Positions 44,693-47,669 of a DNA stretch of 64,000 nucleotides are shown here, one piece after another. The stretch's first letter is position 1; the number at the start of each line of letters is the position of its first letter. The position numbers were made by a program, and so were the translations under genes. This DNA comes from Minisyncoccota bacterium. GTDB lineage: Bacteria; Patescibacteriota; Minisyncoccia; Moranbacterales; UBA2206. The stretch spans positions 666 to 64,665 of the forward strand of contig JARLIA010000014.1 of the NCBI GenBank assembly GCA_031291955.1, read 5' to 3'. The notes beneath the pieces were generated by a model, which was not told the origin of the DNA, did not search any database, and saw nothing but the letters and a program-made list of their open reading frames with translations.

Positions 44693-45002
44693 CAAGAGTC
44701 TACCAGTGTGTGTACAAACACACCTACCGATTTTTTGGCTCGGCTAAGCCTAGCTGTTTGCTACCGAAGTAGCATCGACCAGCGAGATAACATTCACACT
44801 CCTCAACATCTAACTTGCATTAGTATGTCTTAACGAGTAGTGCTCTCGAATGTTACCAAAATCTCCCTAGAAAGGAGGTGATCCATCCACAGCTTCCGCT
44901 ACGGATGCCTTGTTACGACTTCACCCTTATCATCGATCCCACCCTGGTCCCTGCTTTGAGACAGGGCCTTCCGGTGTTACCGACTCTCTTGGTGTGACGG
45001 GC

Positions 45003-45865
45003 GATTATCTTCGTGAAACTACAAATTGATGTTCCCATCGTGCCTGCGGATTTCCCGCACACGACGAGCTCTAATGCATTTTTTGCTTAAGGATGTAGAT
45101 TTTCCTTAAACCTGATTCTTTCAAATGATCTTTTTTCATGACCATTTCAAGAATCCGGCAAAAAATTTCAAAGTCACCGTTCTTTGAGCGTAATCTCAAA
45201 GAATTACTTTTGAAAAATGGAATGATAATTTTTTCCAGATCGTTTCGATTAGCTACTTCAAAGCGATAACAATCTTGATGATTGGCCCGTTTATCTTTTT
45301 GAAAATAAACGTTGCCGCAACCGAAGAATTTCTTGAGTTCATAGAGGATTTCTTTATCTTTCTCTATGAGCTTCAAGAAAAATCTTGGCTCAACCTTTGT
45401 TCGCCGCTGAACTTTTTTCTTTGAATCAGGATCTTTCACGTAAGCCGTAAAGCTTCCCTCTCCATCGACTAAGCCAACGATATAATCTGGATTCAATTCC
45501 ATATGCATTGAGTGAATCCTTCCTCGCCGATGAGGCGAGTACTACGATTCAGCTGACTTCTTACGCTGCGTAAGTTTCATTATATGATCATATTATAACA
45601 CATAATCATAACAACGTAAGATCTCCCGGGGTCATTTAAGTTTCCGTTCCTGGCATTCCGATTGGCGTTTTTGCTTGCATTTTCCCCACGCTCACCACCT
45701 GTCCATGGGTCAATGCCGCCTTTTTCGTATCGGACTGCCATTTGCCTCCAGATCCTTCGCCGTGTTTCTCGCGAAACACGACTATCTTTCGGCTACGCTC
45801 TGATTGGGTTTCAGAGGAGAAGATTCTAACTTCTTGGAAATTTAAACTGCCCGGCGCTTTTATTG
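45003..45865 (-). mobile_element. Group-I-type intron in 16S, inserted near E. coli position 1400
   Basis: Exon sequence breaks between CTTGTACTCAC and CGCCCGTCACACC. The intron contains an in-frame LAGLIDADG ORF. Confidence 0.7.
45071..45508 (-). CDS. LAGLIDADG homing endonuclease (intron-encoded)
   Basis: The LVDGEGSF LAGLIDADG motif is present. The protein is 145 aa and runs in the sense orientation of the rRNA. Confidence 0.8.
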   Translation of the reverse strand: MHMELNPDYIVGLVDGEGSFTAYVKDPDSKKKVQRRTKVEPRFFLKLIEKDKEILYELKKFFGCGNVYFQKDKRANHQDCYRFEVANRNDLEKIIIPFFKSNSLRLRSKNGDFEIFCRILEMVMKKDHLKESGLRKIYILKQKMH

Positions 45866-46099
45866 TGAGTACAAGATCCGAGAACGTATTCACCGCGCCA
45901 TGGCTGATGCGCGATTACTAGTGATTCCAGCTTCATGAGGTCGAGTTGCAGACCTCAATCCGAACTGAGACCGGTTTTTTGGGATTAGCTCCGTCTTGCG
46001 ACTTGGCAACCCTTTGTACCGGCCATTGTAGCACGTGTGTAGCCCAGGGCGTCAAAGGGCCACGCTGATCTGACGTCATCCCCGCCTTCCTCCCAGAAC

Positions 46100-46261
46100 G
46101 AAACGCGCTTTGCTAAGCGCTCAATTTCTAATTTTCAATTTCTAATTTCTAAACAATGTCTAATTTCTCAATGATTAAATTTCTAAATTGAAAATTAATT
46201 CATTGAAAATTGTTTGAAAATTGAGAATTGAAAATTGAGAATTGAGCACGAAGTGCGTTTT
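46100..46261 (-). repeat. Intervening sequence / expansion in the 16S helix-40 loop, composed of AT-rich inverted repeats
   Basis: It is flanked by the h40 stem cccagaac/gttctggg and the inner stem gctcaatttct/agaattgagc. Its arms are (aatttctaat)n and (attgaaaatt)n. Confidence 0.6.
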
Positions 46262-47669
46262 GTTCTGGGCAGTCTCGTGTGACACTGTAACACACGATAG
46301 GGGTTGCGCTCGTTTCCTGACTTAACAGAACACCTTACGGCACGAGCTGACGACGACCGTGCAACGCCTGCTATGCACCCTCGAAGGCTTGTACATTTCT
46401 GTACAATGCAGCATAGTTTCAAGCCCTGGTGAGGTTCCTCGCTTGTCGTCGAATTAAACCACATGCTCCACCACTTGTGCGGATCCCCGTCTATTCCTTT
46501 GAGTTTTAAGCTTGCGCTCGTACTTCCCAGGCGGCAGACTTAACGCGTTAGCTACGACACCGAGAGGGTCGATTCTCCCGATACCTAGTCTGCATCGTTT
46601 AGGGTGTGGACTACTGGGGTATCTAATCCCATTCGCTACCCACACTTTCGCGTCTCAGCGTCAGGCGAGCCCCAACCAGATGCCTTCGCCTTTGGTATTC
46701 CGTATGATATCAACGCATTTCACTGCTACACCATACGTTCTACTGGTCTCTTGCTCCCTCTAGCTTTGCCGTTTCAAACGCAGTTTCCGAGTTAAGCTCG
46801 GAGATTTGACGTCTGACTAACAAAGCCGCCTACACGCGCTTTACGCCCAATAAATCCGGATAACGCTTGAGGTCTCTGTATTACCGCTGCTGCTGGCACA
46901 GAGTTAGCAACCTCTTATTCCTATGGTACCATCATTACATTTTTCCCATAGAAAAGAAGTTTACGACCCAAGGGCCTTCATCCTTCACGCGGCGTCGCTC
47001 CATCAGGCTTTCGCCCATTGTGGAATATTCTCGACTGCAGCCACCCGTAGGTGTTTGGGCAGTGTCTCAGTCCCAATGTTGGGGGTCACGCTCTCACGCC
47101 CCCTACCCGTCATAGCCTTGGTAGTCCTTTACACTACCAACAAGCTGATAGGACACAGGCCGCTCCTGAAGCGATAAATCTTTACTCCGTAGAGATTATC
47201 GTGTATTATCTTGGATTTCTCCAAGTTATTCACGACTTCAGGGTACGTTCCTATGCATTACTAACCCGTTTGCCGTGGGCCTAAACCCACTCGACTTGCA
47301 TGCCTTATCCACGCCGCCAGCGTTCATCCTGAGCCAGGATCAAACTCTCAAAAAAGTTATAAAGAATATAAATTCCTTGATTTTGAATAGACTCTAATTT
47401 GTCTCGAAATAAATCGAGACGAGGACTAATCGCAAAAAATTGTGATTATTTCGTCTCTCTAAATCAAAAGGTAGAGATTTAGAGAAACTATTCACTTGTC
47501 AAAGTTCTTTCCGAGTCTTTCGTTCTGACGAACAAAAAACACATCTTTGTGAGCAACAGTAATTACACACAAAGATGCATCTTTGTTCCACAGTGTTTTT
47601 AAGGGTTGTTTGAGTTATTATTTAACGCCGTTTTTTGACTTAAATAATTATACGCAACTCGTACTGTCT

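Follow-up and report, generated by a model that had tools for sequence, protein, structure and literature searches.

The window, a stretch of 64,000 nt from contig JARLIA010000014.1 of a Minisyncoccota bacterium, contains a 16S rRNA gene that is interrupted by an intron of 861 nt between C1399 and C1400 (E. coli numbering). The intron carries an open reading frame (ORF) for a LAGLIDADG homing endonuclease on the rRNA strand. The element very probably belongs to the class C (IIC) lineage of mobile group II introns, the gene for reverse transcriptase (RT) having been replaced by a single-motif LAGLIDADG gene. A preliminary description of this DNA had reported a 16S gene of about 2.48 kb split by a group I intron. 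The length and the positions of the gene and the ORF stand. The strand is to be corrected as both lie on the minus strand of the window, and the gene also holds an insertion of about 166 nt in helix 40 that had gone unmentioned.

The Rfam model RF00177 (SSU_rRNA_bacteria) matched the minus strand from 47355 to 45813 with 1308 bits. When the whole window was searched at the gathering threshold the 16S gene was the sole Rfam match, and no 23S, 5S or tRNA gene was returned. The nearest 16S genes belong to metagenome-assembled genomes (MAGs) of Moraniibacteriota at 91-92% identity. The host is thus Candidate Phyla Radiation (CPR)/Patescibacteria-like, in line with the preliminary description, which had called such introns a hallmark of CPR/Patescibacteria rRNA genes. 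Exon 1 ends in ...CTTGTACTCAC, also given as ...CUUGUACUCAC and ...GGAUCUUGUACUCAC. Its last five nucleotides are CUCAC (1395-1399). Exon 2 begins with CGCCCGTCACACC, ends with GGATCACCTCCTTT and reads CGCCCGUCACACC...GUCGUAACAAGG...GGAUCACCUCCUUU over its length.

When 200 nt of exon 1 were joined in silico to exon 2, the product of 333 nt aligned to E. coli 16S rRNA in one piece (query 3-332, 74.7% identity). Because the spliced product aligned without a gap, the extra DNA is a clean insertion at C1399/C1400. The break had earlier been placed near E. coli position 1400 and the insert estimated at about 860 bp, with the reservation that the extra length might align to rRNA; the exact site and length agree with both values and the alignment shows an insertion, not rRNA. 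The insert lies in the decoding-centre region and must therefore be removed, as had also been stated. The bases at the splice junctions are C/A on the 5' side and U/C on the 3' side and the intron ends in ...GAUAAU. Shifted boundaries, either with U at -1 and a terminal G or at a 1396/1397 site, were rejected because positions 1392-1406, which are universally conserved, would then lose or gain bases, and the one-piece alignment supports 1399/1400. An archaeal-type bulge-helix-bulge intron was also rejected. The two junctions show only weak complementarity (AUCUU/AAGAU), and the conservation is accounted for by the group II fold.

A scan of GTDB, with one genome per species, returned 28 loci for the endonuclease gene. 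In 24 of these (47-90% protein identity) the gene lies within an intron at the identical 16S junction, between ...GUACUCAC and CGCCCGUC. All 24 species-representative genomes with a related intron-borne endonuclease therefore have the intron at a single 16S site. The features of the locus are listed in Table 1.

Table 1. Features of the interrupted 16S rRNA gene. Intron nucleotides (nt) are counted from the 5' splice site; window position = 45865 minus intron position. D, domain; J, junction; EBS1, exon-binding site 1; MFE, minimum free energy.
Feature	Intron nt	Window position	Strand	Basis
16S rRNA gene		~47355 to 44871	minus	Rfam and sequence
Exon 1, E. coli 1-1399		45865..47355	minus	RF00177, sequence, spliced-junction alignment
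Second insertion, ~166 nt, AU-rich, extending the helix 40 hairpin (CCCAGAAC...GUUCUGGG)		~46099..46264	minus	sequence
Whole intron, 861 nt, between C1399 and C1400		45004..45864	minus	sequence; 24 GTDB loci with the same site
5' linker AAUAA, then AAGCG	1-5, then 6-10	45855..45864	minus	24-intron alignment
D1, basal stem CCGGG/CCCGG, 12 covarying helices	11-239	45626..45854	minus	RNAalifold, pair counts
T-loop-like hairpin in D1	31-47	45818-45834	minus	AGAAG-UUAGAAU-CUUCU
Proposed EBS1, 5'-GUGAG-3'	170-174	45691..45695	minus	complementarity to exon end
D2, stem UCUUACGUUGU/GCAGCGUAAGA, variable tip	240-310	45555..45625	minus	RNAalifold, helix 13 pair counts
J2/3 AGCU and D3 (GAAUC-GUAGUA-stem-GAAG-GAUUC)	311-314 and 315-351	45514..45554	minus	RF01998, covarying helices 14-15
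D4, basal stem CUC-AAUGCAU / AUGCAUU-A-GAG, ORF in loop	353-796	45069..45512	minus	compensatory variants
LAGLIDADG_1 homing-endonuclease gene, 145 aa	357-794	45071..45508	minus (rRNA strand)	Pfam PF00961
D5, 35 nt	797-831	45034..45068	minus	pair counts, MFE fold, IIC comparison
J5/6 AAC, D6 and 3' tail AAU	D6 835-858, tail 859-861	45004..45033	minus	pair counts
Exon 2, E. coli 1400-1542, helices 44-45 and anti-Shine-Dalgarno CACCUCCUUU		44871..45003	minus	sequence, E. coli alignment

The secondary structure of D1 to D3 was derived by RNAalifold from 23 5' segments and from a sequence alignment of 24 introns. RNAalifold predicted 98 pairs, 75 of them with compensatory changes; in the pair counts for D1-D3 these were 75 of 94. 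Pairing was found in 95.5% of cells compared to 36-44% when the partners were slid by 1-3 columns, and none of 500 column shuffles reached the observed values. The 3' segment formed two hairpins, D5 and D6, with 97.5% of cells paired and compensatory changes in 14 of 22 pairs. The single-sequence MFE fold of this segment agreed with the model. The intron has the six-domain group II architecture with the ORF in domain 4, and the RNA outside the ORF comprises about 424 nt.

At the 5' end the position of the group II GUGYG motif, immediately ahead of the D1 basal stem, is taken by AAGCG. The linker in front of it is 5-7 nt long, variable and A-rich across the 24 introns and is followed by A[A/C/U]GCG. 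The first D1 hairpin resembles a tRNA T-arm with a 7-nt T-loop (GGAGUUCAAAUCUCC in L003). Its equivalent reads GGG-UGAAAGU-CCC in canonical IIC introns and GGUGG-UGAAAAU-CCAUC in an intron of Thiomargarita. J2/3 lies within the invariant block AGAAGUCAGCU. The D4 basal stem varies in a compensatory manner among the relatives (CUCAAU/AUUGAG, CUCUAAUG/CAUUAGAG, CCCUAAUG/CAUUAGGG and CCUAU/AUAGG). D5 consists of a 10-bp lower helix with a G.U in the CGU/CGC triad, a 2-nt A-N bulge, a 4-bp upper helix and a GAAAU loop. It was 99.7% paired, with compensatory changes in six pairs, and in all 22 distinct sequences neither the triad G.U nor the U.G under the bulge varied. The window has CGU as its triad, L008, L017 and others have CGC, and the hairpin measures 35 nt against roughly 34 nt in the group II consensus. 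In D6 a 3-bp and a 5-bp stem are separated by an AA bulge on the 5' strand and capped by an AGUUUC loop; all eight pairs showed compensatory changes. No bulged A is present on the 3' strand of D6 in this covariation-supported model, the usual branch site being 7-8 nt from the 3' splice site. The group II 3' boundary is AY; of 25 introns, 21 end in AU and four in UU.

Extra hairpins were seen in several members of the family. L011 has one of about 85 nt (L011:2056-2160) shortly past the D1 basal stem. A GC-rich hairpin is found in the distal D1 arm of L010 and L015, and CCGC...GCGG or CCCG...CGGG hairpins occur near nt 140 in L004, L006, L010, L013 and L015. These hairpins mark tolerated insertion points in the ribozyme. 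The D2 tip of L021 also differs.

A group I intron with a LAGLIDADG gene, as named in the preliminary description, would have a P1-P9 core and splice by guanosine attack. LAGLIDADG genes sit most often in group I introns. Many rRNA insertions in CPR are also of group I, 35% of those in 16S and 45% of those in 23S (PMC11270868). The group I model RF00028, the kind of model by which a core was to be looked for, did not match 44800-45900 even at E ≤ 10, nor any of eight homologous introns at E ≤ 0.01. Group I introns need U as the last base of the 5' exon and G as the last base of the intron. Here the exon ends in C (...CUCAC) and the intron in U (...GAUAAU), and no register shift can supply the U and the G. 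Instead, the helices that covary build up the six domains of a group II fold, with homology to IIC introns. The Rfam results and the splice-site bases in effect refute the group I reading, which is left with almost no probability.

The sole significant Rfam match within the insert was to RF01998 (group II D1-D4-1), from 45590 to 45516 and directly upstream of the ORF (E 3.9e-4). In two of the eight relatives the same model exceeded its gathering score of 35, with 41.4 bits in L019 and with 35.5 in L003. A scan for canonical IIC introns with the J2/3-D3 string of the window itself found nothing, and a scan of viral contigs with the RF01998 consensus string found 81 loci. Those examined were ordinary class C introns that lie after terminator hairpins, start with GUGCG and match RF02001, RF01998 and RF00029. 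The protein encoded in them is about 470 aa long and has RT motifs, YADD among them.

These canonical IIC introns (L163, L178, L190) share with the window intron the context of the D1 basal stem, the D1 closure ACCNNGGGAGAUCU, the J2/3-D3 block recognized by RF01998 and the sequence and geometry of D5 with a CGC-type triad and an AC bulge. The D1 base is GUGCG-CCCGG-CAG in the canonical introns compared to AAGCG-CCGGG-CAG in the window, and the D1 closure and D2 start read ACCCGGGGAGAUCU and ACCCCGGGAGAUCU, respectively. D5 is CCGCCGUAU-GCG-GAAC-CGC-AC-GUACGGUGG in the canonical introns and UCGUCGUGU-GCGG-GAAAU-CCGC-AG-GCACGAUGG in the window. The D5 of the relative L017, UCGCCGUAU-GCGG-GAAAU-CCGC-AC-GUACGGUGG, is near-identical to that of the RT-encoding introns. 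The 1399/1400 family differs in having one extra upper base pair and a 5-nt loop in place of the GAAC tetraloop. Canonical IIC introns also have GUGCG directly at the splice site, insert after transcription terminators, carry a bulged A in D6 (CCUAC) and encode the RT/maturase of about 470 aa, whereas the window intron does none of these. In class C a terminator-like stem-loop upstream of the site is recognized in place of IBS2, while the present site is inside 16S rRNA. Because the D1 base, the D1 closure and D5 are common to the canonical introns, the backbone of the window intron is IIC-like. The Oceanobacillus iheyensis intron O.i.I1 agrees with this backbone, although such agreement does not amount to a test.

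Exon recognition was examined in the distal D1 hairpin. Its terminal loop GACAGGUGGUGAG (nt 162-174) holds the proposed EBS1, GUGAG, which is complementary to the last five bases of exon 1, CUCAC, the proposed intron-binding site 1 (IBS1). The GGTGAG block was invariant in 24 of 24 introns. In introns of the rns-1396 family the homologous loop is UGUAC and the exon ends in GUACA. At position 1396 E. coli has A; all 25 intron-bearing 16S genes, that of the window and those of the 24 loci, have U. Base 1396 (window 45868) is part of the proposed IBS1, so U would be required at this position, and intron and host may co-vary at this nucleotide of the decoding centre.

Several results weigh against a class C group II intron at this site. 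The RF01998 score in the window, 33.8 bits, is just under the gathering score of 35. RF00029 (D5-D6) gave no match on a 101-nt stretch around D5-D6 at E ≤ 10 and none in eight relatives at E ≤ 0.01, and RF02001 (D1) was not matched by the window intron, while the canonical IIC controls match both (RF00029 at 45-50 bits). As RF00029 gave no match, D5 was identified by covariation and by comparison with IIC introns. The 5' end of the intron is not GUGYG, D6 is without a branch-point A, the D5 loop is 5 nt and not a GNRA tetraloop, and the triad of the window is CGU and not AGC or CGC. The EBS1-IBS1 pairing is proposed from complementarity and comparison between families; within the family neither side varies, so no covariation can be seen there. 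Splicing, ligation and the hydrolytic route are predicted.

The departures from consensus bear on whether the ribozyme acts alone. The first G is lost, a linker is inserted, the branch A is missing and the D5 loop is altered, so protein-dependent removal is conceivable. The 1399/1400 introns would then no longer be autonomous, ligating ribozymes. Either the LAGLIDADG protein, acting as a maturase, or a host factor would be needed, or an RNase would remove the insert without ligation. RNase III-processed, unligated sequences are known in bacterial 23S rRNA and have been proposed for some CPR insertions (PMC11270868), and the failure of RF00029 and RF02001 to match is in keeping with such a loss. 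However, J2/3, the D5 G.U pairs and bulge, EBS1 and the helices throughout are under strong purifying selection, and a passive spacer is hard to reconcile with selection on every catalytic element. CPR 16S insertions are also reportedly absent from rRNA transcripts, which counts against this possibility. A ribozyme that is unused or not self-sufficient is accordingly considered improbable, as is the dependence of these introns on protein or on removal without ligation. If there were no ligation, the CPR 16S rRNA would be broken at the decoding centre into 1-1399 and a separate helix 44-45 fragment. Alternatively, removal of the intron could be a gate in 30S assembly.

For a self-splicing group II intron the following course is proposed. 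The pre-16S transcript would fold into domains 1-6 and EBS1 in the D1 loop would pair with IBS1, positioning the 5' splice site. The active site would be built from D5, with its CGU triad containing the G.U and its A-N bulge, and from J2/3 (AGC). The first step would most likely be hydrolysis rather than branching, because the first G is replaced by A behind a 5-nt linker and the 3' strand of D6 has no bulged A. Taken together, the 5' linker with AAGCG, the D6 without a branch A and the D5 pentaloop suggest hydrolysis-initiated splicing. The 3' OH of exon 1 would then attack the 3' splice site after ...AAU, joining C1399 to C1400 and freeing a linear intron. Mitochondrial rRNA introns in which G1 is replaced and a linker is present reportedly yield linear hydrolytic products. 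A like linker is described for rns-1396 and several mitochondrial families; in those of class IIB1 it accompanies the loss of the branch point and probably a turn towards splicing by hydrolysis (PMC13190283).

The same group II-derived intron might instead begin with branching, forming a lariat through a non-canonical adenosine. The candidate nucleophiles are the AA bulge on the 5' strand of D6, which is nearly invariant, or A854/A855, 7-8 nt from the 3' end. A lariat has been shown experimentally for the LAGLIDADG-encoding IIB1 intron rns-952 (PMC13190283), so hydrolysis is not the route of every group II intron with a LAGLIDADG gene. Against this, the covariation-supported model leaves no unpaired base on the 3' strand of D6 where the branch point usually lies, G1 is substituted and, owing to the linker, displaced, and IIC introns are mostly hydrolytic in vitro (PMC13190283). 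Branching is therefore regarded as unlikely, though less so than a ribozyme that cannot act alone.

The intact sense-strand LAGLIDADG ORF noted in the preliminary description was confirmed. The protein of 145 aa matched PF00961 with 63.9 bits against a cut-off of 23.1 (E 2.7e-17) and contains a single motif, IVGLVDGEGSF, which includes the LVDGEGSF seen earlier. Among solved structures the closest are half-domains of two fungal mitochondrial enzymes, I-SmaMI and I-OnuI (E 1e-30). Public data contained 1950 homologues. The best 120 of the 1950 were 76-100% identical and 142-152 aa long, and the named sources among these 120 were Moranbacteria, Parcubacteria and Peregrinibacteria. The ORF was intact in 24 of 24 intron loci. 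The acidic residue of the motif was kept except in L016 (L016:2501-2923), which has DGKG for DGEG in an otherwise intact ORF and may be an inactive or maturase-only copy. The probable ribosome-binding site GAAGGA coincides with the conserved 3' strand of D3 (window 45512-45525). The D4 basal stem takes in both the start region and the stop codon of the endonuclease ORF (stop side 45069-45079). Translation and folding of the ribozyme should therefore compete.

The U1396 junction without an intron (TTGTACTCAC/CGCCCGTCAC) was found in at least 120 metagenome contigs (L029-L148). The closest 16S gene found, on metagenome contig Ga0210016_1002175 (L062, about 92% identical), is without the 1399/1400 intron, and the Moraniibacteriota relatives L003 and L005 (16S identity 91-92%) carry it. 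Near query positions 170 and 412, at which the window gene is uninterrupted, L062 carries further insertions of about 88 nt and about 146 nt. Close relatives thus differ in the insertions that they contain. The pattern fits homing at the DNA level by a homodimeric endonuclease. The enzyme, presumably a homodimer, would cut intron-less alleles with a UUGUACUCAC/CGCCCGUCAC site, and repair from an intron-bearing copy would spread the element at the DNA level. The predicted target is the intron-less UUGUACUCACCGCCCGUCAC site. Splicing, its chemistry, exon ligation and the activity and specificity of the endonuclease are all inferred. I-ShaI, a CPR enzyme from a 23S group I intron, is active and dimeric but belongs to another site and intron class.

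MAGs titled 'uncultured Gammaproteobacteria bacterium' (L009 and L017; also L025 and L026) carry the CPR-type intron. L009 and L017 were considered as a tie to the Thiotrichaceae and rejected. The label or binning looks wrong, since over the 3' half L017 and E. coli share only about 75% identity in 16S, a value like that of the window, and no link is drawn.

The second insertion takes the place of the helix 40 loop. It folds as a single long near-perfect hairpin (-68.1 kcal/mol, z = -10) and has no ORF and no Rfam match. It is missing or of other sequence in most relatives; L004, L029 and L062 appear to share it. It is separate from the intron and unrelated to it. Either an expansion segment or an intervening sequence of the RNase III type would be conceivable.

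The 16S gene is unlinked from other rRNA genes and has protein genes on both flanks. Named by eye, the flanking ORFs are a GH1-like ORF of 427 aa at 47964-49247 and a membrane-like ORF of 170 aa at 44045-44557. The RF00177 match is labelled complete (model 1-1533), yet it ends 52 nt into the intron (45813-45864) and is without the 133-nt exon 2. Matches running into the intron were likewise seen in the relatives L003, L019 and L021-L024. Because the small-subunit match ends inside the intron and misses exon 2, automatic pipelines would report a truncated and wrongly ended 16S gene. For this organism, primers placed at 1390-1400 will not work.

This widespread element should carry the label group II and not group I. 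Hydrolytic group II splicing could be studied well in this natural setting, a reduced ribozyme without an evident branch point at the decoding centre of a 16S gene present in single copy. The same intron is also suited to the study of the coupling of splicing to ribosome assembly.

Group II-like LAGLIDADG insertions at 16S position 1400 of CPR bacteria are already known (PMC11270868; Tsurumaki, Sato, Saito, Kanai 2024, J Bacteriol). In that survey group II-like insertions were found in CPR only at this position (16IS9), 39 of 53 had LAGLIDADG genes and none had a reverse transcriptase, the evidence being Rfam matches. The window intron is like these in its CPR host, its place in the 16S gene at about 1400, its LAGLIDADG_1 ORF, its lack of an RT and its Rfam group II match. 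The report gave approximate positions and no structural model. New here are the exact 1399/1400 junction, the covariation-backed domain map, the IIC affiliation, the linker, the missing branch point and EBS1, together with a 3-nt shift of the site relative to rns-1396 with a matching EBS1.

Fungal mitochondrial rRNA introns of the IIB1-LAGLIDADG type (Toor and Zimmerly 2002; Mullineux et al. 2010) resemble the window intron in residing in rRNA and in having LAGLIDADG in place of RT. They likewise have extra 5' nucleotides before the consensus and no branch-point A, and loss of EBS2 belongs to the same syndrome. I-SmaMI and I-OnuI, the closest structures to the window endonuclease, are fungal mitochondrial enzymes. 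The fungal introns differ in having a IIB1 rather than a IIC-like backbone, other insertion sites and mostly double-motif monomeric endonucleases.

The ribozyme is homologous to that of the rns-1396 family of Thiomargarita and other Thiotrichaceae (Salman et al. 2012; Liu, Jin, Du 2026, PMC13190283). The members of this IIC family all have a 5' terminal linker; they lack EBS2 and encode a single-motif endonuclease in domain IV (PMC13190283). The rns-1396 intron of Thiomargarita nelsonii (FR690945, supplement of PMC13190283) aligned with the window intron over about 331 nt of the 5' part at 53% identity, compared to a mean of 43% and a maximum of 49% in 30 shuffles. Both have the 5' linker followed by (A/U)GCG-CCNGG-CAG (AAAUAAA-UGCG-CCUGG-CAG at the 5' end in Thiomargarita), the T-loop-like hairpin, the D1 closure, J2/3 GAAGUCAGC and D3. 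They are also alike in the 5' terminal position of the linker and in the single-motif LAGLIDADG ORF in domain IV. The N-terminus of the endonuclease reads GFVVGEGCF in rns-1396 and GLVDGEGSF in the window.

The main text of PMC13190283 places bacterial group II-LAGLIDADG introns exclusively in the Thiotrichaceae. This is contradicted by its own Table S4, which has entries from Daviesbacteria, a Parcubacteria group bacterium and Saccharimonadota, all with GUACA/CACCGC and a matching loop. The 1399/1400 lineage is absent from that survey. The present data and Table S4 together show group II-LAGLIDADG introns to be abundant in CPR. The rns-1396 introns lie after A1396, at GUACA/CACCGC (1396/1397), with EBS1 UGUAC. 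The window intron lies 3 nt downstream, at CUCAC/CGCCCG (1399/1400), with EBS1 GUGAG, and needs exon U1396. As the ribozyme is homologous, the site shifted and EBS1 changed to match each exon end, the CPR 1399/1400 introns are a sister lineage of the Thiomargarita rns-1396 introns that was retargeted 3 nt downstream with a matching EBS1.

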